Shown here piece after piece: positions 3,696-46,482 of a stretch of DNA of 64,000 nt. The position numbers and the translations under genes were made by a program. The stretch spans positions 63,079-127,078 of the forward strand of contig JAXGMU010000001.1 of NCBI GenBank assembly GCA_040768485.1. Reading direction: 5' to 3'. The stretch is from Bacteroidales bacterium (lineage in GTDB: Bacteria; Bacteroidota; Bacteroidia; Bacteroidales; GCA-2748055). The stretch's first letter is position 1; every line of letters begins with the position of its first letter. The notes under the pieces are model-generated. The model saw only the letters and a list, made by a program, of their open reading frames with translations. It was not told where the DNA came from and ran no database searches.

Positions 3696-3699
3696 CAGG

Positions 3700-8536: not shown

Positions 8537-9853
8537 ATGGACTGGAAGAAGGAGATTAAGATACTTTTCTGGATAACCGCGGTTTTCCTGGGGGCATTTT
8601 TCCTGCCGGTGGAACATGTACGGTTCCGGGAAGCGGTCATGGCCATGTTCGACCTGACCAAATGGTATGCCAGGGAACATGTGATCCTCTGCCTGCTGCC
8701 CGCATTTTTCATTGCCGGGGTCATCGCGGTATTTGTGAGCCAGGGGGCCGTCATGAAATATTTCGGTGCAAAAGCAAAAAAATGGATCGCTTATTCGGTA
8801 GCCTCGGTATCGGGTACGATCCTGGCCGTATGCAGCTGCACCATTCTGCCGTTGTTTTCCAGCATCCACAAGCGCGGGGCGGGACTGGGTCCGGCCATTG
8901 CCTTTCTCTATTCCGGTCCGGCCATCAACATCCTGGCCATCATCCTCACCGCCCGGATCCTGGGTATGGAGATGGGTGTGGCACGGATCATCGGTGCCGT
9001 AGTCTTTGCCATCGTGATCGGTTCGTTGATGTCGCTGATCTACAGGAAAGAGGAACTGGCCAAACGGGAGGAGCAGATCAATTTCCCCGATATGCCCGAG
9101 AAGCGTCCCGTATGGCAGACCGCATTCCATTTTTTTATCCTGGTCCTCATCCTGGTGTTTGCCAACTGGGGAAAGCCGGACGAAGGGGTAACCGAGGGCG
9201 CCTGGTACCATATCTGGGCCAACAAATGGTACATCACATCCGGATTTGCCGTATTGCTTGTGTTTTCACTGATCTATATCCTGAAGCTTAAATGGACCCA
9301 TGTGGCCCTTGCCGCGGTTGTCACCGCTTTGTCCGCATTCCTGGCTGCTTCCCCCATGATCCCCATGATCACAGGTATGGCCGCCCTTTCTGTCATCACG
9401 CTTTTAGATAAACGGGACCCGGAAAACAGGGAGTGGACCCTCTCCTCCTGGGACTTTGCCAAACAGATCATGCCCCTGCTGGCGATCGGGGTGCTCATTG
9501 CCGGCTTCCTGCTCGGGTCCACCCATGACGACACCGCCATCGCAGGGATCATTCCCAATGAATGGGTGGCCCGGCTGGTGGGAGGCAACTCCATCGCTTC
9601 CAATTTCTTTGCTTCCATCGTGGGTGCATTCATGTATTTTGCCACGCTCACCGAGGTGCCCATTCTGCAGGGGCTGATTGCCGCCGGGATGGGAAAAGGA
9701 CCGGCCCTGGCGTTGCTGCTGGCGGGACCATCCCTGTCATTGCCCAATATGCTGGTCATCCGTGGCGTGATCGGAACTCAGAAAACAATTGTGTATGTGG
9801 TTCTGGTGGTTATCATGGCCACCGTTACCGGCTTGATATACGGACTCATCTAA
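8537..9853 (+). CDS. arsP: ArsP/DUF318 organoarsenical permease
   Basis: LAVCSCTILP, AFLYSGPAIN, MYFATLTEVP, ALLLAGPSLSLP motifs. Confidence 0.85.
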   Translation: MDWKKEIKILFWITAVFLGAFFLPVEHVRFREAVMAMFDLTKWYAREHVILCLLPAFFIAGVIAVFVSQGAVMKYFGAKAKKWIAYSVASVSGTILAVCSCTILPLFSSIHKRGAGLGPAIAFLYSGPAINILAIILTARILGMEMGVARIIGAVVFAIVIGSLMSLIYRKEELAKREEQINFPDMPEKRPVWQTAFHFFILVLILVFANWGKPDEGVTEGAWYHIWANKWYITSGFAVLLVFSLIYILKLKWTHVALAAVVTALSAFLAASPMIPMITGMAALSVITLLDKRDPENREWTLSSWDFAKQIMPLLAIGVLIAGFLLGSTHDDTAIAGIIPNEWVARLVGGNSIASNFFASIVGAFMYFATLTEVPILQGLIAAGMGKGPALALLLAGPSLSLPNMLVIRGVIGTQKTIVYVVLVVIMATVTGLIYGLI

Positions 9854-12970: not shown

Positions 12971-14263
12971 TCAATGGGCATGGGGATGGCCCGATACATC
13001 TTTTTTCATCTCAGCCATCAGTGCCTGTGCATTGCTGACCACAAAGCGTACCGAATCGTTTACCGGCTCCCGAAAAGCGATCCCCGTATAGCCCGCTTCG
13101 GTGATCCCCCGTTCGATTTCCGTCCGTTGAAAGATGTACCAGGCTTCCTCCGCCCTCAAATCATCATGTGCATGAAGTTGCTCCGTGGACCCGGTTGCTG
13201 CAAGCCGGAATACATAATCCCTGCCCTGGTCCGATACCAGCGCTTCTTCCGGCAGTGCGTACTGCCGGTCCCCTCCGGTGTGTATCTGTGCGATCACTGC
13301 CATACCGGGTAAAAGTGCGGGATCCATCCGGACGATACGGGCATGGACCAGCGCTGTGCGGGTTTCCGGATCGAACCGTTGTGATTTTTTCAGGATGGAT
13401 CCTTCCAGGAGCACCGGACGAGAATGATTGGACATGCTGAAAGTCACCCGCTGGCCCACCTGCACCTTATCGATATCCCTTTCATACACCTCCAGGTCAA
13501 TATGCGCTTTTTCGTTGGCCGTAATCCGGCACAGTTCCTGCTGTGGTGAGATATGGACCCCCGTATTGACACTGACCGCAGAAATGTATCCCGATATGGG
13601 CGCCGGCAACGGATAGCTTTTCCTTATTCCTTCCGGTGTGATCCGGTCCGGATCGATATGGATCAGTTCCAGCTTTTTTCTCAGACTTTGCATATTGGCC
13701 TGTCCTGTCTCGTATTCCCATTTGATCTGCTGGAATGTCCTTGCCGCATTGATGCTGTCCGCATACAGACTTTCCTGTCTCCGGTATTCTTCCGCCAGGT
13801 ATTCTTGCCGGCTACGCATCTCCAGATACTCCCGCTGCAACTCCACAATATCAGGGTGTTCGATAAGAGCGATGGTCTGTCCTTTTTGCACATAATCCCC
13901 TTCGATCACGGACAGATCGCGTACAATTCCGCCGATGAACGGGTTCACATAAGCCTCGGCGGACGGAGGCAGGGTGATGGTCCCGAACGCCTTCACCAGT
14001 CCCGACAGACTCATGCGGGATATGCGACCCACAGAAATGTCCACGGTCTCCATCTGTCTCGCGGTGACCAGTACCTGTCCCTCTGCAAGGGACTCCCTGA
14101 TTGCTTCCGGTCCCCCTTCCGTATGCAAGTGTTCTGCTGATGCCTCTGTGTGTTCTCCGGGATTCTCCAATTGACCCTGCCGGTTGCACGCAACCGCAAA
14201 GAAAAGACTGAGAAAGGTCCATGCGATGATCATTCCGGGTTTGATCTTATTTGTTCCTGTCAT
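12971..14263 (-). CDS. RND efflux periplasmic adaptor (CzcB/CusB-like) lipoprotein
   Basis: Lipobox-like FAVAC, biotinyl-like VIEGDYVQKGQ, APISG, DPETRT, LLPGM; His-rich segments. Confidence 0.9.
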   Translation of the reverse strand: MTGTNKIKPGMIIAWTFLSLFFAVACNRQGQLENPGEHTEASAEHLHTEGGPEAIRESLAEGQVLVTARQMETVDISVGRISRMSLSGLVKAFGTITLPPSAEAYVNPFIGGIVRDLSVIEGDYVQKGQTIALIEHPDIVELQREYLEMRSRQEYLAEEYRRQESLYADSINAARTFQQIKWEYETGQANMQSLRKKLELIHIDPDRITPEGIRKSYPLPAPISGYISAVSVNTGVHISPQQELCRITANEKAHIDLEVYERDIDKVQVGQRVTFSMSNHSRPVLLEGSILKKSQRFDPETRTALVHARIVRMDPALLPGMAVIAQIHTGGDRQYALPEEALVSDQGRDYVFRLAATGSTEQLHAHDDLRAEEAWYIFQRTEIERGITEAGYTGIAFREPVNDSVRFVVSNAQALMAEMKKDVSGHPHAH

Positions 14264-14295
14264 GTTATGTTGATTTATACCTGTTTTGTTTTTTT

Positions 14296-17200
14296 TTACA
14301 TTCCCAGCAAATACTCCAGTTCGACCAGCTTTCTGTTGTATTCCAGCAGCACATCCAGGTAATCGAGCCGGATGGAGGTGGACTGGTCGAAATACTGGAC
14401 ATACTGCAGGTAACCGATGTTTCCTGCTTCGTACTGCCCGAAGGCGCTTTTCACGATCATGTCTGCTTCCCGCAGGCGGATCTCCCGGTAATACTCCAGT
14501 TGCCGGCGATCATGCTCCAGGTCGTTTCTTAAGGTGGCGAGATCGATGCCGACCTCCTTTTCCGCTTGGAGGTACTGCTGGTAGTCCATCTCGGCAGCGA
14601 TTTCAGCACCCTTGTTCTTCGCCCGCTCTGCGTAAAAATCGATGGGAATTCTCAAGCCGATTTCAAAGGAGTTGTAATTTCCGTCTTGTTTGAAATCCGT
14701 GTACCTGTACCTGAAAAAAGGATCTGGCCAAAGGGAGGATCTTACCACCCGGCTCATGGCACGGGAGGCTTCCCAGGTGCTGTGGAAAACATTCAGGTCC
14801 GGATTGCCCGCAAGGTCCGGGTTGCCACCAGTGGAATCAACCGGGGAGAGCGTTTCCGGAAATGGGTATGCCGTCAGGATGGTATCGGCAATCCGGACCG
14901 GCCCTTCCGTAAACATCGCCATTTCCAGCATCTTTTGCATGTTATCCATCAGCGTTCCGGCTTTTTCCTTTTCCACGGTGATCTGCCTGTATTTGGCGCT
15001 GGTGGAAATCTGTTCTAGGAAAGAAATATCACCAGCGCTGTACCTCGATTTCCCGGCACGGTCCAGACCGGAAAAGATTTCTTCCAGCTGTTGCATCAGC
15101 CTGAGTTTCTGCCCGGCATAAGTGACCTCGATATACGCCATTTTTACATTCCGGGTAATCGCTGCTCTCACCTGATTCAGCCGGTCCTCCTCCCTCCGGA
15201 TGCGATAACCGGCCAGCTTGTCCAGAGCCGCGTATTCCAGCGGATTCCGGAGAGACTGTTCCACCGACCACCGGTGCAGACCGGTACCTTCGTTTTCCTT
15301 TTCGAAGGACAGTTCCGTATCCGGCAGGTCCCATACCGCAGTCTTCAGCCATTGCTGCCGCGCCACCCCCAGGTCTGCCGCTTTTACCGCCGGGTGGTTC
15401 TCCAGCGCAGCCCACACCGCCTCTTCCATGGTATAGGAGGGGACCGCCTCCAGCGCATTTCGCGTTGCCAGGCTCTCATTCGGTACGGGTTTGCTGCCTT
15501 GTTCCGGGACCTGTCCCCTTACCGCAGGGAAGAGCGTCCCCATGCCCAGGAGAACCAGGATGAACCAGGATCTGTTGTTTTTTCGCCCCATGTTTCCTCT
15601 TTTTGTTACAATTTTCTCCAGGGAGGGCACCCTGATTTTTCTCTCACTGAAGGTATAGATGATGGGTAAAAGGATCAGCGTGAGCAATGTGGCCGTGAGG
15701 AGTCCCCCTACCACCACCGTGGCAAGAGGTCGCTGTACTTCCGCTCCCGGGGAAGTGGAAAGAGCCATGGGTAGGAACCCCAGGGCATCGGTCAGTGCGG
15801 TCAGGATAACCGGCCGCAGCCGCAGATCGGTACCGTGATAAACCCGTCGGTATACGTTGCCCATGCCCTCTCCTTTAAGTTCGTTGAAAAAGCTCATGAG
15901 TACCACCCCGTTGAGTACGGCGATCCCGAACAGGGCGATGAACCCCACGGCCGCAGAGATGCTGAAAGGCATTCCCCGGATCCAGAGAGAGAACACTCCA
16001 CCGATGGCCGCCAGGGGAACCGCTGAAAATACCAGGATGGACTGCTTCAGCGAACCGAAAAGCATGTAAAGCAGGATAAAGATGAATCCCAGTACGAGGG
16101 GGACCACCCACCGCAGGCGCTTTTTCGCACTCTGCAGGTTTTCATACTCACCTTCATAGGTCAGGTAATATCCCCTGGGAAAATCCAGTTTTTCTTCAAG
16201 CTGTTTCTGTACCTCTTCCACAAACGATTCTGTATCGCGGTCGCCGATATTCACATCCACCTCTAGTTTCCTGCGTACGCTCTCCCTGGATATGGCAGCC
16301 GGTCCGTCCTGCATGGTAATGGTGGCCACCTCGCTCAGCTTCACCTGTTGGCCGTTGGGGCGCTTGATATACAGATCGCCCACCGCATCCGGATCGCTGC
16401 GGTATTTTTCATCCAGTCGTACCACCTGTGAAAACTGCCGCTCACCTTCGTAGATCGTACCGGCCACTGCCCCGGAATACCCTGCCTGGATCGTGCGGTT
16501 CACCCGGTCGATATCAAGCCCGTAGCGGGCCAGGATGTCCCTGTCGTATCGAATGACGACCTGCGGCAGGCCGATGACCTTCTGCACATTCAGATCGCCC
16601 GCACCGGGTATCCTGCGGATGATCTCACCGGCTTCATTCCCAATCCGGAACAGGGTATCCAGATGATCCCCGTAGATGTTCAACAGCAAATCGGCCGATG
16701 AACCCGTGAGCAGGTGGTTAAAGAGCATTTCCACAGGCTGGGCGAAGAAGAAATTCACTCCTGGAACGGCAGCCGACATCTCCTCTTTCATCATTTCTTC
16801 CAGTTCATCCTTGGTCTGTGCCCTGGTCCATTCATCTTTCGGGGTCAGGTTAATGATCATCTTTGCCATTTCCAGTGACATGGGATCTGTGGGGATTTCC
16901 CCCGTACCGATCTTTGTGGCCACCTGCTCCACCTCATCTGGAAATTCTTTCAGAAGGACCTGTTCCAGGCTGGTGTTGATCCTCACGGTCTCCTCCAGGG
17001 ATGTTCCCGGCTGAAGGATCGGGTGAATGGCAAAATCTCCTTCATCCAGTGTCGGGATAAAAACAGCACCCATGCGGAAAAAAATAAAAAGGGCGGCAAT
17101 GAACAGGACAAGGATCCCGGATATGACTGCATAGCGGTAACGCAACGCCGAACCCAGCAGTCTCCGGTATCCATTCCGGACCCGACCCAGGATCCGGTCT

Positions 17201-18756
17201 GCCGGTCTGTTCATATCCTTTTTATCAGGCCGCACGATCCAGGCGGTCATCATGGGTACATAGGTCAGGCACAAAATGATGGCGCCGATCAGTGCCGAGC
17301 CGAATGTAATGGCCATGGGACGGAACATCTTACCCTCCTGTCCCGTGAGCGCCAGGATCGGAATGAACACGATCAGGATGATCAATTGTCCGAATACGGC
17401 TGTGCGCATCATCCGCCCCGAGGCCCCGATGGTGATCCCATCCATCCGGGCCTGAAGCTCCCTGCCCCTGCTGTGTTTCAATGAGGCCATGTTCCGGCTC
17501 AACTGAAAGACCACGAATTCAACGATAATGACGGCCCCGTCGATGATGATCCCGAAATCCACCGCTCCCAGGCTGATCAGGTTGGCCGAGAAATCAAACG
17601 TATACATAATCCCGAGGGCAAACAGCAGTGACAGGGGAATGACCGAGGCGGTGATCAGCCCTGACCGGAAATTTCCCATCAGGAATACAAGCACAAAAAT
17701 GACAATGAGGGCTCCCAGTGTCAGGTTTTCCACCACGGTATGCGTGGTTTCACCGATCAGCGAGGAGCGGTCCAGAAATGGTTCCAGCTGCACACCCTCA
17801 GGCAAGGCTTCCCTGACCCTGGTAAGCCTTTCCTTCACATCTTTGATCACCCGGGCGGGATTTTCCCCGCGCAGCATCATGATCTTCCCGCCGACCGCCT
17901 CTCCCTTTCCGTTATAGGTAAAGGCGCCGAACCGGGGAGCGCTTCCGAAACCGACCCGGGCTACATCGCCTATCCGAAGGGGGATCCCGCCTTTATTATG
18001 AATAACCGTGTTGCGGATATCCTCGAGGGAGGTGATGAGCCCTTCTCCCCTGATGAAATAAGCCTGTCTGTTCTTTTCGATGTAGCTGCCACCGGTGTTG
18101 GCATTGTTTTTTGTCAGTACCTCGTATACATCACTGATGGTGATGTTGTAGCTCCTCAGCCGGGCAGGGTCCACGGCCACCTCGTACTGCTTCAGGTATC
18201 CCCCCATGGTATTCACTCCCACCACCCCGGGAATATTGATCAACTCCTTTTTCACGATCCAGTCCTGGATCTCCCGCAGGTCCATGGCATCATACAGGGT
18301 ATCATACCCCGGTTCGGTAGTGAGCACGTACTGGTATATTTCGCCAAGTCCCGAAGTCATCGGTCCCATGGATGGCTCACCCACTGCCCGGGGTAATTTA
18401 TCTGTTGCACTTTTTAATTTTTCCATTACCAGCTGCCTGGGTTTGTACATGCCCAAGCGCTCTTCAAAGACCAGGGTGATGTCGGACAATCCGAACTTGG
18501 ACACCGAACGGATCTCGATCAGTCCGGGCAGGTTCCCCATTTCAAGCTCGATGGGATAGGTGATGAGCCGTTCCACCTCCTCTGTGGCCAGATCTGGGGT
18601 GTAGGTAGTCACTTTTACCTGGTTGTTGGTCAGATCGGGTACACTGTTCAGCGGAAGGTGCAACATGGAGTAAATCCCCCAGCCGGTCCACGCCAGGATA
18701 AAGAGCCCGATGACCAGTTTGTTTTTTACGGAAAATTCAATGATCCTTTGTATCAT
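14296..18756 (-). CDS. CusA/CzcA heavy-metal RND transporter fused to a C-terminal TolC-like outer-membrane efflux domain
   Basis: GAVDFGIIIDG, EGKMFRPMA, RLRPVILT, GAEVQRPLA over about 1040 aa, followed by about 400 aa helical OEP-like region (AVWAALENHP...YEAGNIGYLQY). Confidence 0.92.
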   Translation of the reverse strand: MIQRIIEFSVKNKLVIGLFILAWTGWGIYSMLHLPLNSVPDLTNNQVKVTTYTPDLATEEVERLITYPIELEMGNLPGLIEIRSVSKFGLSDITLVFEERLGMYKPRQLVMEKLKSATDKLPRAVGEPSMGPMTSGLGEIYQYVLTTEPGYDTLYDAMDLREIQDWIVKKELINIPGVVGVNTMGGYLKQYEVAVDPARLRSYNITISDVYEVLTKNNANTGGSYIEKNRQAYFIRGEGLITSLEDIRNTVIHNKGGIPLRIGDVARVGFGSAPRFGAFTYNGKGEAVGGKIMMLRGENPARVIKDVKERLTRVREALPEGVQLEPFLDRSSLIGETTHTVVENLTLGALIVIFVLVFLMGNFRSGLITASVIPLSLLFALGIMYTFDFSANLISLGAVDFGIIIDGAVIIVEFVVFQLSRNMASLKHSRGRELQARMDGITIGASGRMMRTAVFGQLIILIVFIPILALTGQEGKMFRPMAITFGSALIGAIILCLTYVPMMTAWIVRPDKKDMNRPADRILGRVRNGYRRLLGSALRYRYAVISGILVLFIAALFIFFRMGAVFIPTLDEGDFAIHPILQPGTSLEETVRINTSLEQVLLKEFPDEVEQVATKIGTGEIPTDPMSLEMAKMIINLTPKDEWTRAQTKDELEEMMKEEMSAAVPGVNFFFAQPVEMLFNHLLTGSSADLLLNIYGDHLDTLFRIGNEAGEIIRRIPGAGDLNVQKVIGLPQVVIRYDRDILARYGLDIDRVNRTIQAGYSGAVAGTIYEGERQFSQVVRLDEKYRSDPDAVGDLYIKRPNGQQVKLSEVATITMQDGPAAISRESVRRKLEVDVNIGDRDTESFVEEVQKQLEEKLDFPRGYYLTYEGEYENLQSAKKRLRWVVPLVLGFIFILLYMLFGSLKQSILVFSAVPLAAIGGVFSLWIRGMPFSISAAVGFIALFGIAVLNGVVLMSFFNELKGEGMGNVYRRVYHGTDLRLRPVILTALTDALGFLPMALSTSPGAEVQRPLATVVVGGLLTATLLTLILLPIIYTFSERKIRVPSLEKIVTKRGNMGRKNNRSWFILVLLGMGTLFPAVRGQVPEQGSKPVPNESLATRNALEAVPSYTMEEAVWAALENHPAVKAADLGVARQQWLKTAVWDLPDTELSFEKENEGTGLHRWSVEQSLRNPLEYAALDKLAGYRIRREEDRLNQVRAAITRNVKMAYIEVTYAGQKLRLMQQLEEIFSGLDRAGKSRYSAGDISFLEQISTSAKYRQITVEKEKAGTLMDNMQKMLEMAMFTEGPVRIADTILTAYPFPETLSPVDSTGGNPDLAGNPDLNVFHSTWEASRAMSRVVRSSLWPDPFFRYRYTDFKQDGNYNSFEIGLRIPIDFYAERAKNKGAEIAAEMDYQQYLQAEKEVGIDLATLRNDLEHDRRQLEYYREIRLREADMIVKSAFGQYEAGNIGYLQYVQYFDQSTSIRLDYLDVLLEYNRKLVELEYLLGM

Positions 18757-30257: not shown

Positions 30258-31496
30258 ATGAAACCAAAAGAACGACTTCTGAAAGCCATCAACCATCAGG
30301 AACCCGACCGGATACCCATCGATTTGGGTGCAACACCCAGTTCCGGAATTTCAGTGGTTGCCTGGCAAAACCTGCTGAAACACCTTGGCAAAGATCACCT
30401 TCAAACCTGGGTGTACGATGTGGTACAGGAAGTGGTGCAACCCGAACTGGAAATTCTGGACCATTTTGGGATTGATGTGCTCGATGTGGGCAGGAACTTT
30501 AACCAGAATCCCGGATACTGGTATAAACTAGAATTAATCAAAGGATTTCCCGGTTGGTATCCCAAATGGTTCAAAGTCGAGCACCAGAAAGACGGTTCGT
30601 GGCTGGCGTTCAACGACCTCGGCGAAGCCATTGGAAAAATGCCGCTGGGAGCCACTTTTTTCGACCAGACCATTTTCCCGTACCTGGATGAATTTCCGGC
30701 CAGCTACAACGATTTTGATTTAGCCATGAAACGAACAGTTTGGGGAGGATTTGGATTTACCCCCTGGGATTGGGCCGGCCAACCAGGATTTTGGGAAATG
30801 CTCCGGGAAAAAACGCTGGATTTAAAAGCGAAAACCGATAAGGCAATTCTGCTGGGCGTAGGCTGCAACCTGTTTGAATGGGGGTGTTTTCTGAGGCGAA
30901 TGGACAATTTCCTGACAGACCTTTACCTGAATCCGGATGAAGTGCACCGCTTACTGGATGCGCTGATGCAAAAACACATGGATTTGCTGGTTCACGTTTG
31001 CGATGCCGTTGGCGACATTGTAGATATTGTTAAATTCGGAGATGACCTGGGCACAAACAACGGCCCGTTCATGCCGGTTGAAACCTACCGGGAATTTTTT
31101 AAACTGCACCATAAAACCATGTGCGAATACGTAAAAAAACATTCGGCCATGCACACCATGCTGCACAGTTGCGGAGGCATCTACGATTTGATTCCCGAAC
31201 TGATTGATGCCGGATTCGAAATTTTAAATCCGGTACAAATCAATGCATTAAACATGGAACCGCTCCGGCTGAAAAAGGAATTCGGCAAAGATATCACCTT
31301 TTGGGGAGGCGGGGCTGATACCCGGAACGTGCTCAACAAAGCCACACCCCGCGAAGTGAAAGACCACGTAAAATATAATCTCGACATTTTTTCGAAAGGA
31401 GGCGGTTATGTGTTCAACACCGTGCACAATATTATGCCCGATGTGCCGCCACAAAACATTGTGGCCATGTTTGAAGCCGTTCACGAATTTTATTAA
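30258..31496 (+). CDS. Uroporphyrinogen decarboxylase / MtaA-CmuA methyltransferase superfamily protein
   Basis: ERLLKAINHQEPDRIP, GDDLG, LHSCG, LNPVQ, FWGGG, FNTVHNI. Confidence 0.85.
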   Translation: MKPKERLLKAINHQEPDRIPIDLGATPSSGISVVAWQNLLKHLGKDHLQTWVYDVVQEVVQPELEILDHFGIDVLDVGRNFNQNPGYWYKLELIKGFPGWYPKWFKVEHQKDGSWLAFNDLGEAIGKMPLGATFFDQTIFPYLDEFPASYNDFDLAMKRTVWGGFGFTPWDWAGQPGFWEMLREKTLDLKAKTDKAILLGVGCNLFEWGCFLRRMDNFLTDLYLNPDEVHRLLDALMQKHMDLLVHVCDAVGDIVDIVKFGDDLGTNNGPFMPVETYREFFKLHHKTMCEYVKKHSAMHTMLHSCGGIYDLIPELIDAGFEILNPVQINALNMEPLRLKKEFGKDITFWGGGADTRNVLNKATPREVKDHVKYNLDIFSKGGGYVFNTVHNIMPDVPPQNIVAMFEAVHEFY

Positions 31497-32562: not shown

Positions 32563-33762
32563 TCATGTACTTGAAAGATTCCCAAACCCGGCCGAAAGGG
32601 TAACCCTGAAAGTATTCTTTAATGGGCTGTTTTCATCGGTGGGTATCAGGTAAGAAAGATCAAGCCCCAGAAAACTGAACCTGGCTCCCAGTCCGACCGT
32701 GATATATCTCCGGACTCCTTTGGAATCATGTTCATGAAAATATCCGGTGCGCACGGCTACCCTATCCCTGTAACGGTATTCCGCTCCGAAAGCAAGTGCA
32801 ATTTCATGGATCTCCTCGGCGAGAACGCTGCGCGTGCCATCTACTTTTAAAACACCAGGCGCATCATAAACAGACTGAAACATTCCGGAAATGATTGATT
32901 CCGGGGATTCTTTCCCTGCGACCAGGTACTGATCGCCGGTCGTCGAATCCATGGCATAGAGAGGCGGCGTGGGAACCAGAAGCTTGTTTGCATCAACCTG
33001 CAATGAAATGGAATGATCTTCATGAAGATAATAAAGGAACCTGCCTCCTATCCGCAGGTTGGTGGGGATGGGTGTTTTCTCCGCATCTTCCGTGTAAGCA
33101 ACGGGGATTCCTATATTTGAAAGATTCAGCCCGGCTGCCCACAACGCATCCTTTCCCCCGATCTTTATTTCATCCTGGTAATAGAGCCCGATGTCACCGG
33201 CGACAGAATTACCAGGTTTTGTCTCCTCTCCATATGGAGCAGGCTGCCCGCCGGAAAGATCAGAATATATATATCTCAGGACAATTCCTCCTGAAAAATG
33301 ACCGGTGATCTGATGCGTGTACCCGGCATCCACTGCCAGTTCAACCGGATGATATTCCACCCCCGCAGGTCCGCTCCCGGCAATCAATGTTCCACGGGAG
33401 AAATACCGGAATGAGCTGCTGATGGTATTCTTATCACCAATTCTGTAATAACCGGCCAGGTAGACATGGTGGATATCCGGAATGAGATTGGTAAGCCACG
33501 GTGTATAGGAAAGCGCCATCCCGCCTGCCCTTTCCATGAAAGCATATTTTCCTGAATTCCAGTGCTGGGAATTGATATCAGGCGCAGAAGCAACACCCGC
33601 ATCACCCATACCGGCGGATGCGGCATCCGGTGCAATGAGTAAAAAAGGCACAGCGGTCTGGATTGCATTGGGAGAATTCCCTGTGATCCCGCTGCCGGTG
33701 ATCTGTGCCACCAGGGCTTTGCCCGACAGGATCAGCAATGCAATAATCCATATCTTTTTCAT
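32563..33762 (-). CDS. porV: T9SS outer-membrane shuttle protein PorV (probable paralogue)
   Basis: TAVPFLLIAPDA..AGMGDAGVA, QHWN..KYAF, SYTPWL, PTNLRIG, ANKLLVPTPP, RTGYFHEH, PLKNTFR. Confidence 0.88.
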   Translation of the reverse strand: MKKIWIIALLILSGKALVAQITGSGITGNSPNAIQTAVPFLLIAPDAASAGMGDAGVASAPDINSQHWNSGKYAFMERAGGMALSYTPWLTNLIPDIHHVYLAGYYRIGDKNTISSSFRYFSRGTLIAGSGPAGVEYHPVELAVDAGYTHQITGHFSGGIVLRYIYSDLSGGQPAPYGEETKPGNSVAGDIGLYYQDEIKIGGKDALWAAGLNLSNIGIPVAYTEDAEKTPIPTNLRIGGRFLYYLHEDHSISLQVDANKLLVPTPPLYAMDSTTGDQYLVAGKESPESIISGMFQSVYDAPGVLKVDGTRSVLAEEIHEIALAFGAEYRYRDRVAVRTGYFHEHDSKGVRRYITVGLGARFSFLGLDLSYLIPTDENSPLKNTFRVTLSAGFGNLSST

Positions 33763-33886
33763 TTGAGGAGAGGGGCTTATAATGTCATAACGGAGCCTGT
33801 ACCCAGTTGGTATAATATGTTCCGGAATATTATTGAATCCGGGAATTTTTACGTATTTTTCTTACACCCGTAAATCCATGAATGAT

Positions 33887-35236
33887 ATGAAACACAGGAC
33901 AAAATATCCCGGGCTGACGGTCATCATCGCCCTGATGGGACTGGGCTCGGTTTCCTTCCATGCCTACCAGAAAGCAAAATACGCATATGATGATTTTGAA
34001 ACTCCTGCCTATTGCAGGCAGTGTCATGACCTGTTTTACGAGCAGTGGGACCAGGCCCTGATGTCCGATGCATACAGCCATGAGTGGGACGAGATCGAGT
34101 ATTTCCAACTGGCGGTGCCCCATTCTGAGAAGGATCCTTCCATGCTGGAAGCCCAGGAAGGATGCAACGGTTGCCATACTCCCATGGCTTACCTGGCGGG
34201 TGATGTGCCACCCCCGGATCCGAAAACCAATCCCCGCGCCAATGAATCCGTTTCCTGCGATGTCTGCCACACAATCCGGGGTTATTCAGGGGATACGCCC
34301 CATAATTTTAATTACATCATTGAGCCAGGGAAGACCAAAATCGCATCGGTGAAAAGAAATCAGGATTCTCCGAACCACCAGATCGATACGACCCGGTTTT
34401 TCGCATCAGCGGAATTCTGCGGCATCTGTCACAATGAAAAGAGTCCTTTCGGTGTCTGGGTCAAATCCACCCACCTGGAACTGATGGAAGGCCCTTACTA
34501 TCAAGAGGGGGTAGTGTGCCAGGACTGCCATATGCCTGACGGCGCAGCGAAAGTAGCCAAGATGGGTGACCGGTATACTGACGCGAGAATGCATCTTTTC
34601 AACGGGGCCCATGATCCGGGGAAGGTCCGCGGTGCCATTGAGATCCGGATTGCCCCGCATGTCCAGGGACTGGAGCCGGGAGAGCCGCTGGTTCTGACGG
34701 TCACCCTGTACAACCAGAAAACCGGGCATAAATTCCCCACCGGATCGGTGGAGGACCGGATCGCCTGGCTGCATGTGGAGGCAATCGACGAAAGCGGGAA
34801 GGTATACCACATTCCGGTGGATGAAAAGGGCTTTGAAGGGGAGGAATACACTATTGCCGGCGAGGCGCTTGCCTACCAGGATATGGGGATCCCCCTGGGA
34901 ATCGAAAACTTTGAAGGGTTACGAAGGGAGATGGTCCCTGTGGGCGACCGCATCTTTCGCATGCCTTATTTCGATAAGGAAGGAAGGATGACCATGATGC
35001 AATGGAACACGGCATCGCTCGGGGTGGATTACCGGATCGGCCCCCGGGAAACCAAGGTCGAAACGTATACATTTAATGTCCCCTTTGATGTGACACCGGG
35101 AGAGCTGACCATCAAAGCGGTGATGTATTACAGATTGCTGGTCCGGTCGGTGGGAGAATACCTGAAAGTGCCCGAATCGGAATACACGGCCATGACCGTG
35201 AATGAACAGGAAGTAAAAGTAACCGTATATCCCTGA
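33887..35236 (+). CDS. Pentaheme c-type cytochrome with C-terminal Ig-like domain
   Basis: Five CxxCH motifs (CRQCH, CNGCH, CDVCH, CGICH, CQDCH); signal peptide; GHKFPTG. Confidence 0.9.
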   Translation: MKHRTKYPGLTVIIALMGLGSVSFHAYQKAKYAYDDFETPAYCRQCHDLFYEQWDQALMSDAYSHEWDEIEYFQLAVPHSEKDPSMLEAQEGCNGCHTPMAYLAGDVPPPDPKTNPRANESVSCDVCHTIRGYSGDTPHNFNYIIEPGKTKIASVKRNQDSPNHQIDTTRFFASAEFCGICHNEKSPFGVWVKSTHLELMEGPYYQEGVVCQDCHMPDGAAKVAKMGDRYTDARMHLFNGAHDPGKVRGAIEIRIAPHVQGLEPGEPLVLTVTLYNQKTGHKFPTGSVEDRIAWLHVEAIDESGKVYHIPVDEKGFEGEEYTIAGEALAYQDMGIPLGIENFEGLRREMVPVGDRIFRMPYFDKEGRMTMMQWNTASLGVDYRIGPRETKVETYTFNVPFDVTPGELTIKAVMYYRLLVRSVGEYLKVPESEYTAMTVNEQEVKVTVYP

Positions 35237-35248
35237 AAAATTTACTCT

Positions 35249-36451
35249 ATGAAAAGAATGACATACCCGAAGCTCATCATCGCCGTCATGCTGGTTTTCA
35301 TGATGTGTGACCAGATGAATGCAATTCCAGCTTTCGCCAGAAAATACGGAATCAGCTGCATGACATGCCATACTCCGGCCGCTCCCAAACTGAAAGATTA
35401 CGGGGATACGTTTGCCGGGGACGGCTTCAAACTGGCCGATTACCAGTCGCCCCGCTACTACCAGGACGCAGGTGACCAGAAACTCTCACTTATCAGGGAT
35501 TTTCCCATTGCAGTGAGGATAGACGGTTACGTGCAGGCCGGGATCTCCGAGAACGGGCAGGTGGATATGTCCGCACCTTTCCTGCTCAAACTGATGTCCG
35601 GAGGGGAGCTCTCGGAACATCTGGCTTACTATTTCTATTTCTATATGTACGAACACGGGGAGGTGGCCGGTGTGGAGGATGCCTTCCTGGTGTATGACAA
35701 CCTGTTTAATACAGAACTGGATATTTACGTGGGGCAGTTCCAGGTATCGGATCCGTTGTTCAAGAGAGAACTCCGGCTTACTTTCGAAGATTACCATGTG
35801 TACACTTCCCAGATCGGATTGTCAGATTTTAATATGAAATACGACAAGGGGATCATGCTTACCTACAGTCTGCCCACCTCAACGGATATCGTGTTTGAGG
35901 TGGTCAACGGGAACGGGCTCACCGAACTGAACAGCAAGGACTTCTTTGACAAGGACCCCTATAAGAATTACCTGGTCCGGGTGGCCCAGGGTGTAGGTGA
36001 TTTTTTAAGTGTCGGGGCTGTGGGATATTTGGGGAAGGAAGATATCACCAACGAGGTAAGGACCATCACCAACAAAGCCTACTTCCTGGGAGCCGATGCC
36101 ACCATTTCATTCTCTGACAAACTGGAAATCAATATGCAGTACCTCATGCGGGAGGATGACCAGGTGTTTGAATCGCTGGCCGACCTGGAACCCATGAACG
36201 ATGTGCGGACCCAGGGGATCATGGGTGAAGTGATATACAGCCCGAAAGGCGATCAGAGCAACTGGTATGCGGTGGGGTTATATAATTACGTGGATTCGGA
36301 ATACGCCCCTGCCGACTACCATTCGGCCACACTCCATCTGGGATACCTGTTGCGCAGGAACGTGCGGCTCGGGCTTGAATATACAGAGATCTTCACCGAT
36401 CCCGAAAACTTATACGGCAGGTTATCGCTGGGTTTTGTGGCAGCTTTTTAA
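35249..36451 (+). CDS. Cyc2-like fused monoheme cytochrome-porin
   Basis: Signal peptide then AIPAFARKY-GIS-CMTCH-TPAA-PKL; amphipathic beta-strand-rich remainder; terminal Phe. Confidence 0.8.
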   Translation: MKRMTYPKLIIAVMLVFMMCDQMNAIPAFARKYGISCMTCHTPAAPKLKDYGDTFAGDGFKLADYQSPRYYQDAGDQKLSLIRDFPIAVRIDGYVQAGISENGQVDMSAPFLLKLMSGGELSEHLAYYFYFYMYEHGEVAGVEDAFLVYDNLFNTELDIYVGQFQVSDPLFKRELRLTFEDYHVYTSQIGLSDFNMKYDKGIMLTYSLPTSTDIVFEVVNGNGLTELNSKDFFDKDPYKNYLVRVAQGVGDFLSVGAVGYLGKEDITNEVRTITNKAYFLGADATISFSDKLEINMQYLMREDDQVFESLADLEPMNDVRTQGIMGEVIYSPKGDQSNWYAVGLYNYVDSEYAPADYHSATLHLGYLLRRNVRLGLEYTEIFTDPENLYGRLSLGFVAAF

Positions 36452-36457
36452 CGGTCT

Positions 36458-37960
36458 TCAGGAGACACAGCCGGAGAATTTTTTTCCGTCTTTCCTGCAC
36501 ATCAGCTGGACCACCTGGCGCCCTGACAGGGCAGCAATCACGGTTCCGGTGAAAGGGGCCGTCCACTGGCCTACCATCTGTAATCCCTCAAGTCCGGGAA
36601 GGCTGCGCACCGGTTCCATATCATTCATGTTTTCCGGGGTGACATACCATCCGTCGGGCGATCCTTTCCAGTTACCTGTATATCTGGTATACGTCATGGG
36701 AGTAGGCACATCGATCACCTCCACCCGGGAGGCAAATCCCGGGTAGCGTTTTTCAAGCTGTGCGATGGTGAAATCCGCAATGCGTTTCTTTTCAGCACGA
36801 TATGCCTTCCTATCCCGGGCCAGAGCCTGCCAGTATTCGTATTCGGTATCGTACCATACCTCCACGGCTGATTTGCCTGCGGGAGCCATGGAAGGGTCAA
36901 AACAATGATGAAGCACTGCCAGCCACCTGTGTTCCTTTCCTGCAATAATGATGGGTTCTTCTGCCTCAAAGACAAGGCGGTGAGGCTCTGCGGAGAAATC
37001 CATGTCCACACCCATCATCACATGGACGACCGGTTTCACCGGGATCCACGTATCATACATGTTTTTGATCTTCTCATTCATATACTTCCCTCCGAGAATA
37101 TCAAAAATAAGGGTATGTCCGTCCCCCGCCCAGATTACCTGTCCTGCCCTGTGCCGGGTACCGTCTTCCAGTTCGATCCCGACAACACGTTCATTTTCAA
37201 TGATCAGGTCTTTCACCCGGCTTTTGAAGTGGATCTCCCCTCCCTGTTGCTTGTATCTTTCGGCAATATGGGAGACCACCTGGTAGGAGCCGCCAAGCGG
37301 AGCCCCTGCATCTGTGACTGAGCTCTTCACAAAACCTGCCATCACCACCATGGGAAAATTTACCATGGGCCAGCCCGGAGCATCAACAAAACTGCGGACA
37401 GCCATCCGGAGAAAGGGATCTTTGAAACGCTCCGAAAATTGCTGGATGGTTACTTTGTTATACTTTCCAAAAACCCCGATCAGTGGGAGGATTGCCGGTA
37501 TTGTTCTGATAGTGTCCAGAATATTTTTGATTTCTTTCGGCTTCAGGGAAGCTGCATTCATCATGTCGGGTCCGAAGACAAGACGAATGAATTCCCTGAT
37601 CAGTCCCTCATCTTCAGGAGAAATGGCAAGCATTTCTTCTTCAACCTTCTCTTTGTCGGTCGAGAAAGTTAGTTTCCTGCCCATGCCTTCAACACGGGAG
37701 ATCTGATCATGATAGTGAAATCTGAACTTCTCCGGGATCCCCAGTTCCTCCCACATCCGGTGGATGGGTCCGGACCGGGAAGCCGTCAGCATGTGCATGC
37801 TGATGTCAAATGTATATCCCTTTCGGGTCCAGGCTGTGCAGAGCCCTCCCGGAATGTTGTGCATCTCGAAGACAGCACTCTTGTACCCGTTCACCTGGGC
37901 ATAGAAGCCGGCTGACAGACCCGAAATCCCGGCTCCGACGATGATGATATCTTTTTCCAA
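36458..37960 (-). CDS. FAD-dependent oxidoreductase, phytoene desaturase-like family
   Basis: IVGAGISG, PGGLCTAWTRKGYTFD, APAGKS, TPMTYTRYTGNWKGS, GQW; TTG start. Confidence 0.88.
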   Translation of the reverse strand: MEKDIIIVGAGISGLSAGFYAQVNGYKSAVFEMHNIPGGLCTAWTRKGYTFDISMHMLTASRSGPIHRMWEELGIPEKFRFHYHDQISRVEGMGRKLTFSTDKEKVEEEMLAISPEDEGLIREFIRLVFGPDMMNAASLKPKEIKNILDTIRTIPAILPLIGVFGKYNKVTIQQFSERFKDPFLRMAVRSFVDAPGWPMVNFPMVVMAGFVKSSVTDAGAPLGGSYQVVSHIAERYKQQGGEIHFKSRVKDLIIENERVVGIELEDGTRHRAGQVIWAGDGHTLIFDILGGKYMNEKIKNMYDTWIPVKPVVHVMMGVDMDFSAEPHRLVFEAEEPIIIAGKEHRWLAVLHHCFDPSMAPAGKSAVEVWYDTEYEYWQALARDRKAYRAEKKRIADFTIAQLEKRYPGFASRVEVIDVPTPMTYTRYTGNWKGSPDGWYVTPENMNDMEPVRSLPGLEGLQMVGQWTAPFTGTVIAALSGRQVVQLMCRKDGKKFSGCVS

Positions 37961-44097: not shown

Positions 44098-46482
44098 TTA
44101 ATTCAATTGATTCCCGATCTTTAATCCCACATAAACCGTTCTGGGATTCAGGGGACCATATACATATCCGGGATCCCGGTCGATCCCTGCATCAATGTCT
44201 CTTTGATAGGCATTGAAAATATTTCTCATCCCGGTAAAAAGCCTTAATGTTGCCCCGTTTAGCCTGATGTCATAACGCAATTTGAGTCCCATTTCCAGAA
44301 ACCTTTGTGATACGCGTAATTCTCCCTGGTTCGGGTCCGGCTGATCTGTCCCGAAATATGGCACCAGCATTTTACCGGTATAGTTCGCAGTTGAAGAAAG
44401 TCCAAAGCTGCCGGTTGTCTGCCAGTCCAACGCCATGTAGCCATAGTCACCCGGGGTGCGGAGAAATCTTTTTTCATTGAATTCCTGAGCCTCCTCGTAA
44501 AAGCTGCTCTGAACCGTAAATCCGGTTTTCAGAGTCAGTTCTTCGGCCGGGGCCATGTTCAACTCAAAATTCAGTCCCCGTACGCTGGCTCCCTTTTCAG
44601 CATTATCCCGGGTATAGATCACCCTGCCTTCTTCGTCCGGCTGGCTGTAATGATTGGAGAAAGGATTATTCAAATGCGTATAAAATCCTTCCACAAGAAA
44701 ATTCAAATATAGACCGCCAAACTGCCTGTTCAGATCCATAGAGGCCATGAAACTGTGACTTGTTTCCTGGGTCAGATCCGGACTGTTCCGGTGGATCACT
44801 TTTCTTGAACCGGAGGTTTCGATGTGCAGGTCTTCATCAAAGATCTGGGGAGCCCTGTATCCTCTGGAATAACTGAGTCTGGCCTGCAGATAATACTGGA
44901 TATCGTATTTGAGGGTGATTCTCGGGCTGAGTACATTCCCCGAGTTATCCGAACCAGCATTCTCGTTGTCTCTCACATGATACCTGTCAAATCGTGCACC
45001 CGCTGATACCTGAAACTTATTCAAATTGAGCTCATACTGGGCAAATATACCTGTCGCACGGGTGGATTGGTCAGCAACAAGCACATTATCAGTATGTAAA
45101 ATTTCAACCACAGAATCGTTCTCCACGAGAGGATTGTCAAGATCCGGATATCCCAGCTTCTGATCTTTCAGCCATGTCCCGCTGTTTTCAATACCCGCAG
45201 TGAACCCGGACCGGCCCAGAACTGCCTTATACTGTGCTCCGAATGTAAAGGAAAAATCGCGGGTGTTCCCGTAATCCCTCAGCGATTGCCCGGCACCATA
45301 GTAAGAGTCCCGATTCATACTATGACCTGATGCATAAATTGAAAAATGATCATTTTCTCTGAAATAGCGCTCATAGGTAACCGCTGCAGTGTTCAGGTCA
45401 TGTTGAACCGATTCCGCGATGTTGGATTCATGCAAAGGGTAGTCGAACCTGTCCCCTCCCCGTCTGTCTTCCATGATATGAAAGAAATCGACAGTTATTT
45501 TACTTCGTAATCCGAACCGATGGAATACCCGGCTACCGATGGTAATGTTCTTCAACCGGGAAATTTCTGAAAAATCATCGCTGTTTGCATCAAACGGATC
45601 CCTGCTACGGGAAAAGCCGTACAATGCCATTCCTGTTTTGCTGTCAGAGGAAACCAGGGATGTATTGAACTGAAGTGAATGATCCTTTGCAGGGTCTCCT
45701 GAATGGCTCATTCCCAGGCCCATCACTCCGCCGGTTGCACCGATCTCGTAAGCGTTGTTGATGGGATCTTTCAATATCAGATTAATGGTGCCTGCGATGG
45801 CATTGCTGCCATATAACGCAGAACCACCCCCACGGATGATTTCCACCCGTTCGATCATATTGGAGGGAATCAGTTCCAGACCGTATACCCCGGAAAGACA
45901 GCTGAAAACAGGACGGCTGTTGATGAGTATCTGGGAATAAGGGCCTTCCATCCCGTTCATTCTGACCTGCGAAAAACCACAATTCTGGCAATTGTTCTCC
46001 ATTCTCAATCCGGGACTAAAATTCAATCCATCGCTCAATGCGACAGCCTGATATGCTGCGAAGATTCTTGATGTAATGGTATTGACGATCACCGGAGATT
46101 CCTTCCGGTTGGTTTTGCTCCTGGTCCCGGTAACAATGACTTCTTCGAGACCCAGCACGTCCCTTTCCAGTTCGAAATTCAGCTCCCGGGTTTCTCCCCG
46201 GCGTATGGTAATTTCTTTTATCATGGGTTTGTGTCCCATATAATCAGCCCTGATTAAATGGGTGCCCGGGGGCAGATTGATCAACTGGTAGTGCCCTGTT
46301 TCATCTGTTGATGTCCCTATGGTTGTTCCCTCCACGGTGATCGTGGCAAAGGACAAATGCTCCGTACAATTGAGACAGATGACATGTCCGACGATATTCG
46401 CATCGGTTTGTTTCTCCTGGGAGTTCATTGCATGCGTAACTGACAGGAGCATCAATGTCAGGATCATATTTAGTTTATGCAT
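44098..46482 (-). CDS. TonB-dependent receptor (probable metal/metal-chelate uptake)
   Basis: CarboxypepD-like N-terminus, EEVIVTGTR, ENNCQNCG, IERVEIIRGGGSALYG, YVYGP..PRTVYVG. Confidence 0.93.
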   Translation of the reverse strand: MHKLNMILTLMLLSVTHAMNSQEKQTDANIVGHVICLNCTEHLSFATITVEGTTIGTSTDETGHYQLINLPPGTHLIRADYMGHKPMIKEITIRRGETRELNFELERDVLGLEEVIVTGTRSKTNRKESPVIVNTITSRIFAAYQAVALSDGLNFSPGLRMENNCQNCGFSQVRMNGMEGPYSQILINSRPVFSCLSGVYGLELIPSNMIERVEIIRGGGSALYGSNAIAGTINLILKDPINNAYEIGATGGVMGLGMSHSGDPAKDHSLQFNTSLVSSDSKTGMALYGFSRSRDPFDANSDDFSEISRLKNITIGSRVFHRFGLRSKITVDFFHIMEDRRGGDRFDYPLHESNIAESVQHDLNTAAVTYERYFRENDHFSIYASGHSMNRDSYYGAGQSLRDYGNTRDFSFTFGAQYKAVLGRSGFTAGIENSGTWLKDQKLGYPDLDNPLVENDSVVEILHTDNVLVADQSTRATGIFAQYELNLNKFQVSAGARFDRYHVRDNENAGSDNSGNVLSPRITLKYDIQYYLQARLSYSRGYRAPQIFDEDLHIETSGSRKVIHRNSPDLTQETSHSFMASMDLNRQFGGLYLNFLVEGFYTHLNNPFSNHYSQPDEEGRVIYTRDNAEKGASVRGLNFELNMAPAEELTLKTGFTVQSSFYEEAQEFNEKRFLRTPGDYGYMALDWQTTGSFGLSSTANYTGKMLVPYFGTDQPDPNQGELRVSQRFLEMGLKLRYDIRLNGATLRLFTGMRNIFNAYQRDIDAGIDRDPGYVYGPLNPRTVYVGLKIGNQLN

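Follow-up and report, generated by a model that had tools for sequence, protein, structure and literature searches.

The window analysed here is a 64,000-nucleotide (nt) stretch of a Bacteroidales genome (contig JAXGMU010000001.1 of assembly GCA_040768485.1), in which two adjacent + strand genes encode an exported c-type cytochrome with five CxxCH motifs (hereafter the pentaheme) and a fused monoheme cytochrome-porin of the Cyc2 family (hereafter the porin). Our results show that this pair recurs as a conserved cassette in distant genomes, and that its pentaheme is related to cytochrome c552 of Thermochromatium tepidum (PDB 5ze8) and to the selenoprotein reductase ExtKL, also named MccSep. The conserved operon likely provides a minimal trans-outer-membrane route for small dissolved redox species, built from a periplasmic pentaheme of the c552/ExtKL-MccSep fold and a Cyc2-family pore. 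The features of the pair are as follows.

33878..35236, + strand: gene of the exported pentaheme c-type cytochrome (open reading frame (ORF), five CxxCH, matches to multiheme Pfam and NCBIfam models).
33887..33973, + strand: predicted signal peptide of the pentaheme, about residues 1-29, with no lipobox Cys (sequence reading; homologues have typical cleavable signal peptides).
33986..34627, + strand: five-heme domain, about residues 34-247 (five CxxCH in register with MccSep).
34628..35233, + strand: C-terminal immunoglobulin (Ig)-like beta-sandwich domain with a conserved insert of about 60 residues (strands of the model, match to 5ze8, alignment to MccSep).
34745-34747, + strand: codon of S287 in the pentaheme loop NQKTGHKFPTGSVEDR, at the position of the MccSep selenocysteine loop.
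35237..35248, + strand: intergenic spacer of 12 nt, between the pentaheme stop and the porin ATG.
35249..36451, + strand: gene of the Cyc2-family fused monoheme cytochrome-porin, 400 amino acids (aa) (ORF, motifs, model, tree).
35321..35392, + strand: Cyc2 signature A25-L48, made up of AIPAFARKY, GIS, C37MTCH41, TPAA and P46KL48 (sequence against the definition in PMC8406198).
35507..36448, + strand: predicted 16-strand beta-barrel, residues 87-400, with C-terminal Phe (strands assigned by DSSP in the model, OprP/OprO matches).
Inside 35507..36448, + strand: non-strand segment GQFQVSDPLFKRELRLTFEDY of the porin, residues 162-182, unusually conserved among homologues.

The pentaheme gene ends with TGA at 35234-35236 and the porin gene starts with ATG at 35249, in agreement with the first-pass annotation, which had described a two-gene operon with a 12-nt gap. 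Since both flanking genes lie on the - strand, the pentaheme and porin genes form a stand-alone two-gene unit. The pentaheme gene may start at ATG 33878 or ATG 33887, while TTG 33833 opens the longest frame. A database protein of 452 aa is identical to the pentaheme and starts at 33878; residue numbers here are counted from ATG 33887 (449 aa).

Cyc2 has been defined by a signal peptide, one CxxCH, an upstream AxPxFAR[Q/K][T/Y] motif that is called unique to Cyc2, a PxL four residues downstream and a 16-strand barrel (passages of Keffer et al., PMC8406198). After a signal-like hydrophobic N-terminus, the window porin reads M1...N24-AIPAFARKY-GIS-CMTCH-TPAA-PKL, and it ends in GFVAAF. The AxPxFAR[QK][TY] motif corresponds to A25-IPAFARKY33, the single CxxCH (C37-H41) is kept in 37/37 homologues, and PxL (P46KL48) is found four residues past the CxxCH. 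Residues I26, P27, F29, R31, K32, Y33, C37, C40, H41, P46 and L48 are invariant in the same 37 homologues. The Cyc2 signature and C-terminal Phe reported earlier are thus borne out, with all published sequence motifs present. Keffer et al. place the AxPxFAR motif “5 amino acids upstream” of CxxCH (PMC8406198); in the window porin three residues separate Y33 from C37, and the spacing between motif and CxxCH is identical in Mariprofundus, Zetaproteobacteria and Acidithiobacillus loci. With 400 aa, the porin also exceeds the minimum Cyc2 length of 365 aa, which is the FeGenie filter. Six-frame translation of the genome gives 12,920 ORFs with a length of at least 80 aa, and P.FAR[QK][TY] occurs in two of them, one of which is the porin. 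The other overlaps the COX1 oxidase gene and was rejected as a Cyc2 candidate, the match being read as chance.

The AlphaFold2 model of the porin has a mean predicted local distance difference test (pLDDT) score of 64, with most of the barrel at 60-90. The heme domain scores below 50, as expected for a model built without heme. DSSP assigns 17 strand elements between residues 87 and 399, two of which we read as one broken strand, leading to about 16 strands. The top PDB folds found by Foldseek are OprP (2o4v, 4.3e-12) and OprO (4rjw, 7.3e-12), followed by other 16-strand porins, and published Cyc2 barrel models were built on the same phosphate porins, OprO (4RJW) and OprP (2O4V), according to the section of PMC8406198 on modelling. 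The porin is therefore predicted to be a 16-strand outer-membrane barrel, which answers the structural check that the first-pass annotation had proposed.

No Pfam or NCBIfam model matches the porin. Its neighbours in the ESM Atlas are “hypothetical protein” clusters throughout, contributed by Bacteroidota and Aminicenantota, and a single Pseudomonadota cluster, 20% of whose members have Porin_O_P. Homologues are numerous (4580 at E<=0.001; clustering at 50% identity leaves 1060 groups, of which 94 reach E<=1e-30), with distant ones in Gemmatimonadota and Armatimonadota. The barrel is well conserved, with a mean column identity of 67% among the 37 homologues.

To analyze the distribution of the gene pair, we scanned one genome per species with the back-translated pattern P-x-F-A-R-[QK]-x-x3-CxxCH, which carries about 37 bits by our own arithmetic, so that roughly ten chance matches are expected in the whole collection. 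At least 120 loci were found, 80 of them with flanks. Among the matches listed, to which the locus counts below also refer, 119/120 loci have an ORF with the motif, including Mariprofundus, Zetaproteobacteria, Acidithiobacillus, Chlorobiaceae and Nitrospira defluvii. In 12 of the 80 flanked loci, the encoded porin has at least 43% full-length identity to the window porin. They come from Kapabacteria, Marinilabilia salmonicolor, two Melioribacteraceae, one Ignavibacteriaceae, three Bacteroidales, a Bacteroidetes metagenome-assembled genome (MAG), a Thermoanaerobaculia MAG and two unclassified MAGs. In each of the 12, the gene immediately preceding the porin gene on that strand encodes a pentaheme homologue (55-64% identity). 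The spacer ranges from -17 to 91 nt in 11 related loci, plus one of 469 nt by our own start call. In one of the 12, an uncultured Bacteroidales MAG (L048), the cassette genes are in pieces (ORFs of 124 aa and 118 aa), which could reflect decay or an assembly error. Another genome (G376, contig C24, 201115-202275) has a porin gene with one in-frame TGA, for which the same two explanations could apply.

The pentaheme partner sets these loci apart from other Cyc2 loci. A same-strand diheme ORF (204-330 aa) lies directly downstream of the porin gene in 23 of the 61 other Cyc2 loci, including the Acidithiobacillus locus, which is the classical cyc2-cyc1 order; no such ORF is found in the 12 pentaheme-linked loci. 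It is also absent from 7 loci of a sister clade (five Gemmatimonadota, one Nitrospinaceae and Wenzhouxiangella sediminis; 32-43% identity), and these 7 have no multiheme gene within 2.5 kb of the porin gene either. One of them, from Longimicrobiales (L056), has a gene for a 128-aa monoheme cytochrome c at 3637-4023, with a start 11 nt after the Cyc2-like gene, which may represent a third kind of partner. Of the positions that never vary in the pentaheme-linked porin clade, 70 are likewise conserved in the sister clade of the Gemmatimonadota type. The conserved porin segment GQFQVSDPLFKRELRL was considered as a docking site for the pentaheme and rejected, since it is equally conserved in the sister clade, which lacks the pentaheme.

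A family tree was built from 69 complete motif-bearing proteins, leaving out 12 of the 80 flanked loci whose ORFs were cut or fell outside 350-560 aa. It contains three groups: Zetaproteobacteria, Rhodocyclales and Nitrosomonadales in the first, Acidithiobacillus with many Proteobacteria in the second, and two Mariprofundus loci (L009 and L074), Nitrospira and Acidobacteriota sequences together with the window porin in the third. The groups resemble the published Clusters 1, 2 and 3, and the window porin is Cluster-3-like, a label that we infer because the clusters were assigned by the organisms in each group. Within the tree, the window porin falls in a 17-row clade with an SH-aLRT support of 100, and its nearest relative is the porin of Marinilabilia salmonicolor (L021, 54% identity). 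In a second, more careful tree of 37 rows, a branch with support 99/98 sets the 11 pentaheme-linked porins apart and recurs in 100% of bootstrap trees.

An even set of 301 genomes of the window's GTDB phylum was then searched for both proteins (porin at E<=1e-30, pentaheme at E<=1e-40). The porin gene is present in 20 genomes and the pentaheme gene in 19, all of which are among the 20; the remaining porin carrier, G492, has no pentaheme match. The cassette genes are neighbours in 18 of 19 other carriers, 17 of them on one contig and one with the pentaheme gene split over two contig ends beside the porin gene. All 19 other carriers in this sample lie outside the window's class. In a 251-genome sample of that class, the porin gene is found in the window's genome and in none of the 250 others, and a class sample centred on the M. 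salmonicolor genome has the porin gene in that genome only; the two genomes probably share a class. The window's order contributes only 7 genomes to each sample, so the earlier description of the genome as Bacteroidales-like is probably too specific. The cassette is thus rare and patchy in the window's class and commoner in other classes of the phylum. The compact outer-membrane electron conduit proposed by the first-pass annotation is strengthened by this strict gene pairing across phyla.

The pentaheme contains exactly five CxxCH motifs (C43-H47, C93-H97, C124-H128, C178-H182 and C211-H215), no other Cys and a hydrophobic N-terminus, which fits its earlier description as an exported cytochrome with five such motifs. 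Five non-motif His residues (H65, H164, H236, H242 and H281) and M59 are invariant in 44/44 sequences. Since these five His suffice as second ligands, all five hemes could be bis-His ligated. Pfam gives generic multiheme matches only. The best NCBIfam model is NF040886 (multiheme c-type cytochrome (seleno)protein ExtKL) with 40.4 bits, below its cutoff of 250, and the DmsE/MtrA-type model TIGR03508 reaches 23.9 bits against a cutoff of 192. There are 2594 homologues at E<=0.001, some of them in Melioribacter strains, and a profile of 33 homologues finds one clear PDB relative, 5ze8 (9.7e-09). In the AlphaFold2 model the heme domain is poor and the C-terminal beta-sandwich is confident (strands at 251-447, pLDDT up to 96). 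The top Foldseek match of this model is again 5ze8 over the whole length (E 2.4e-14, 20% identity), and its other matches are only Ig-like domains. We also considered the pentaheme as a membrane-anchored quinol dehydrogenase of the NapC/NirT type, and rejected this because the NNT Pfam match covers residues 173-222 only and the signal peptides of homologues look cleavable.

ExtKL, Gsu2801 and c552 have been grouped as a “pentaheme cytochrome family” in a study of cable bacteria (PMC11976967). ExtKL is MccSep, a periplasmic tetrameric polysulfide reductase with catalytic selenocysteine (Sec) 325 and a heme 2 ligated by His/Cys239, and with R83 and K372 as further important residues (Mihara et al. 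2026, PMC13510729). The hallmarks of this type, five CxxCH and a C-terminal Ig-like domain in a periplasmic protein, are found in the pentaheme. Of 201 Nitrospirota genomes, 57 have proteins above the NF040886 cutoff (278-598 bits), nearly all from genes with one in-frame TGA, and one such gene matches PDB 9wt8/9wt9 at 1e-184. The MccSep residue numbering could be fixed by aligning this homologue to 9wt8/9wt9. A comparison of the pentaheme family with six Sec-type MccSep homologues by hhalign gave a probability of 98.6% (E 7.7e-16, 304 columns), with all five CxxCH in register, and MAFFT agrees. The comparison with Geobacter Ext-cluster cytochromes that the first-pass annotation had suggested therefore identifies the pentaheme as an ExtKL/MccSep homologue.

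Residues important in MccSep are nevertheless replaced. In both alignments, U325 of MccSep (GHAIPDG-U) faces Ser287 of the pentaheme (GHKFPTG-S), which is invariant in the 33 sequences of the pentaheme alignment, so that neither Sec nor Cys occupies this position, and C239 faces Leu197, leaving no Cys ligand for heme 2. R83 faces the invariant Asp68, and K372 faces Asp363 (hhalign) or Thr375 (MAFFT); these two mappings are less secure. We conclude from these alignments that the pentaheme shares the MccSep/c552 fold but is not a polysulfide reductase of the MccSep type. It is probably a pure electron carrier rather than an enzyme, and its conserved former active-site loop leaves room for other chemistry.

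Such chemistry could mean that the pentaheme is an enzyme after all, whose retained MccSep-type pocket by heme 2 has been re-tooled (Ser, Asp, Leu) and acts on a small substrate admitted by the porin, by analogy with ExtI and ExtKL/MccSep. In favour of this role, neither the loop NQKTGHKFPTGSVEDR nor the segment H65-E-W-D68-E varies across phyla, as for a functional site, the barrel interior is far more conserved than in usual Cyc2, and Geobacter extKL clusters with the porin gene extI (PMC5877670). However, all four residues important in MccSep are replaced, no Cys or open coordination site can be inferred where five invariant His are enough for five bis-His hemes, and the porin has a heme of its own, which a passive substrate channel would not need. 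We regard this enzymatic role as quite improbable. A related idea, which we rate as unlikely though a shade less so, is a new two-component iron oxidoreductase, in which the Cyc2-type pore would bring in dissolved iron and provide the electron path, and the re-tooled MccSep pocket (with Ser in place of Sec, Asp in place of the anion-binding Arg and Leu in place of the Cys ligand, all fixed in the aligned sequences) would form a periplasmic metal-binding redox site. If this were true, the “cyc2” matches in Bacteroidota and Ignavibacteria would mark a heterotroph iron or shuttle redox metabolism unlike lithotrophic iron oxidation.

Other members of the pentaheme family also depart from MccSep. 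The Candidatus Nitrospira defluvii chromosome encodes three MccSep/c552 pentaheme paralogues below the NF040886 cutoff (L127, L130 and L131). The one that was aligned, L127, has His at the selenocysteine position and represents another branch with neither Sec nor Cys.

The surroundings of the pair in the window contain the following further features.

32563-33762, - strand: gene of PorV (type IX secretion), upstream flank.
36458-37960, - strand: gene resembling flavin adenine dinucleotide (FAD)/amine oxidases, convergent downstream flank.
36472..36488, + strand: possible intrinsic terminator hairpin with T-run, 21 nt past the porin stop (weak; its position alone is suggestive).

Three terminator-like sites were found against 2.8 expected from shuffled sequences, and a promoter scan likewise did not rise above the shuffled expectation. 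One contig of 252 nt from RNA library X14 spans 36256-36507 and thereby includes the 3' ends of both the porin gene and the convergent gene; it may be DNA carry-over or a transcript of the convergent gene and is not counted as evidence. In 12 loci, a crude scan of the 250 nt preceding the pentaheme gene was made, and no FNR/CRP-like palindrome, Fur box or Bacteroidetes -7 element proved to be conserved.

These surroundings bear on the idea that the pair serves reductive iron acquisition, reducing chelated Fe(III) at the pore so that Fe2+ enters the periplasm for uptake, as a nutritional rather than respiratory function. The pore is of the ion-selective OprP/OprO type, as this idea would have it. 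Yet no iron-uptake gene flanks the window's pair, no Fur-box-like sequence is conserved in the scan just described, and five hemes exceed the need of a nutritional flux. This makes a role in iron acquisition very improbable.

Several other genes of the window deserve mention. A URO-D-family gene (30258-31496, + strand) lies 2.4 kb upstream beside a mannitol-dehydrogenase-like gene, with a Pfam match to the C-terminal half only, and it is unlikely to supply heme to the cassette. The gene at 44098-46482 (- strand) encodes a TonB-dependent receptor that weakly matches a heme/hemoglobin receptor family, with 99.9 bits where the cutoff is 317. A metal-resistance neighbourhood lies some 15 kb away from the cassette, with a CusA/CzcA-type heavy-metal pump of the resistance-nodulation-division (RND) type in a 1486-aa frame (family model of 1051 positions) plus a periplasmic adaptor (12971-18756, - strand), and an SO_0444-like Cu/Zn efflux transporter (8537-9853, + strand).

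The host genome has 4.3 Mb in 189 contigs and is 95% complete. It encodes a CcsBA-type System II for cytochrome c maturation, with the ResB and CcsA domains in one 1033-aa frame, a finding that the first-pass annotation had named as a check on its reading. Terminal oxidases are a COX1-type heme-copper oxidase and cytochrome bd, and the genome also has NrfA, NrfH, a QrcA/ActA-like hexaheme and a CcoP-like multi-domain cytochrome. This gene content offers sinks for electrons taken from Fe(II) and, for outward flow, quinol dehydrogenases as well. COX1-family genes also occur in 19/19 other sampled carriers, a count that covers carriers only. Near-identical DNA occurs in sequencing runs labelled anaerobic digester, one of which may be the source, and DNA of 95-99% identity occurs in sludge metagenomes of a second study; runs with small shares (marine sediment, marsh, hot spring and others) were not used for habitat.

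Two further loci of the host genome are unusual. On contig C16 (30202-31779), a NapC/NirT tetraheme is fused to a C-terminal domain matching PvdO/GldK/EgtB, which we take to be formylglycine-generating-enzyme-like (sulfatase-modifying-factor-like); this is an unusual fusion for a quinol dehydrogenase. On contig C34 (16244-20933), genes for a 10-heme protein (396 aa, no NCBIfam match) and a 7-heme protein (323 aa, weakly DmsE/NrfB-like) lie about 2.5 kb apart and may form a second extracellular electron-transfer cluster.

In which direction would electrons cross the pore? The first-pass annotation held that this cannot be read from sequence, and we agree. We lean slightly, and tentatively, towards inward rather than outward flow, with Fe(II) being oxidised to supplement the electron supply at oxic-anoxic interfaces. 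In this model, the porin would sit in the outer membrane and its heme domain would close off the mouth of the pore on the periplasmic side, as proposed by Keffer et al. (PMC8406198). A small dissolved species, most likely Fe2+, would enter the pore from outside and exchange an electron with the heme at the pore mouth. The pentaheme would dock on the periplasmic face of the pore and pass the electron on to inner-membrane complexes, either an alternative complex III (ACIII)-like complex with a heme-copper oxidase, or NrfAH.

Two lines of evidence speak for Fe(II) oxidation. Tested members of the family, A. ferrooxidans Cyc2, Leptospirillum Cyt572 and Cyc2 PV-1, all oxidise Fe(II), as summarised in passages of PMC8406198. 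The same source argues that the substrate must be dissolved because there is a single heme at a narrow pore, and at neutral pH the soluble substrate is Fe2+ rather than Fe(III).

A number of observations weigh against this preference for inward flow or against the necessity of the pairing. Carriers are organoheterotrophs that are not known for iron oxidation, and oxygen and nitrate are scarce in digester and sludge settings. The characterised member of the pentaheme family is a reductase and its solved relative is titled low-potential. Geobacter and Rhodoferax, which are iron reducers, also carry Cluster-3 cyc2 according to the FeGenie authors (PMC7005843). In addition, the conserved barrel does not strictly need a nearby pentaheme, because the sister clade keeps the barrel without it.

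Some of these points would suit outward flow, in which a dehydrogenase of the NapC/NrfH or ACIII type would take electrons from quinol and hand them to the pentaheme, from which they would reach the pore heme and a soluble extracellular acceptor that enters the pore. Such an acceptor could be chelated Fe(III), a shuttle of the humic or quinone type, or a sulfur species, and the conduit would then be an electron sink for fermentative or facultative anaerobes. The homology of the pentaheme to the polysulfide reductase MccSep (PMC13510729) and to c552 favours this direction, as do the occurrence of Cluster-3 cyc2 in iron reducers, the digester and sludge labels of the source runs and the anoxic habitats of the heterotrophic carriers. 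The NrfH, NapC/NirT-type tetraheme and QrcA-like hexaheme of the genome could supply the electrons. But Fe(III) is insoluble at neutral pH and one heme at the periplasmic mouth of a 16-strand pore cannot reach minerals, as argued in the passages of Keffer et al. (PMC8406198), and no tested Cyc2 homologue acts as a reductase. Nor is the type of partner decisive. Multiheme bis-His cytochromes also serve oxidation elsewhere, as in MtoA and PioA, and because they work both ways the partner does not settle the direction. Outward flow is thus a real possibility, to which we give about one chance in three.

Whichever direction applies, the cassette matters for the reading of metagenomes. The cyc2 gene is the most used metagenomic marker for microbial iron oxidation (FeGenie). 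The clade of the window porin has thousands of database homologues, occurs in heterotrophic bacteria of sediments, hot springs and digesters, and is accompanied by a pentaheme, unlike the cyc2 of canonical iron oxidisers. If electrons flow in reverse or the substrate is another one, many “iron oxidiser” calls would be wrong; if Fe(II) is oxidised, iron oxidation would be far more widespread among heterotrophs than assumed. Because the cassette is limited to two genes and one carrier, Marinilabilia salmonicolor, can be cultured, the function of Cluster-3-type Cyc2 can be tested directly, and the link of the partner to MccSep offers concrete residues for mutation.

Matches to cyc2 in candidate phyla and the uncertain role of Cluster 3 have already been reported. 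In the literature searched, with subscription journals and the figshare Cyc2 trees outside its reach, we found no description of a pairing of Cyc2 with a c552/MccSep-type pentaheme or of the Ser-for-Sec variant. The accessible text of the multi-omics paper on Melioribacter roseus (PMC5492636) has no relevant passage and gives no expression data for the gene pair. What is new here is the MccSep link with its residue mapping, the contrast with the diheme partner and the partner-less sister clade.

Compared with known systems, the window porin resembles A. ferrooxidans Cyc2, Mariprofundus Cyc2 PV-1 and Leptospirillum Cyt572 in its signal peptide, single CxxCH, motif spacing, length of about 400 aa, OprP/OprO-like barrel and C-terminal aromatic residue. 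It differs in that its barrel is strongly conserved, whereas Cyc2 barrels are described as poorly conserved (PMC8406198). BLAST similarity to Zetaproteobacteria and Acidithiobacillus proteins is limited to the N-terminal 60-200 residues, and the partner is an upstream pentaheme instead of a downstream diheme.

The pentaheme, in turn, shares the order of five CxxCH, the Ig-like domain and the GHxxPxG loop with MccSep/ExtKL of Geobacter sulfurreducens (GSU2937-2936, PDB 9wt8), and like ExtKL with the porin ExtI it is genetically linked to an outer-membrane barrel. Unlike MccSep/ExtKL, it has an insert of about 60 residues in the Ig-like domain. ExtI is described as a heme-free porin, and we take its barrel to have 21 strands; the barrel of the window pair carries a heme and is predicted to have 16 strands. 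The c552 of Thermochromatium tepidum (5ze8) is both the best whole-length structural match of the pentaheme and its best sequence-profile match in PDB, but near the position of the MccSep ligand c552 carries a Cys outside its CxxCH motifs, and the pentaheme has no such Cys.

With MtrCAB, MtoAB/PioAB and the Pcc and Ext systems of Geobacter, the window pair has in common that an outer-membrane barrel and a periplasmic multiheme cytochrome are encoded side by side, in those systems to exchange electrons with the exterior. There the barrel is larger and heme-free, and it encloses a wire of ten or eight hemes. Keffer et al. contrast Cyc2 with such sheathed-wire conduits (PMC8406198). The window pair likewise stands outside the MtrAB/Pcc type, with a small barrel of about 16 strands that carries its own CxxCH and a pentaheme that is unrelated to MtrA.

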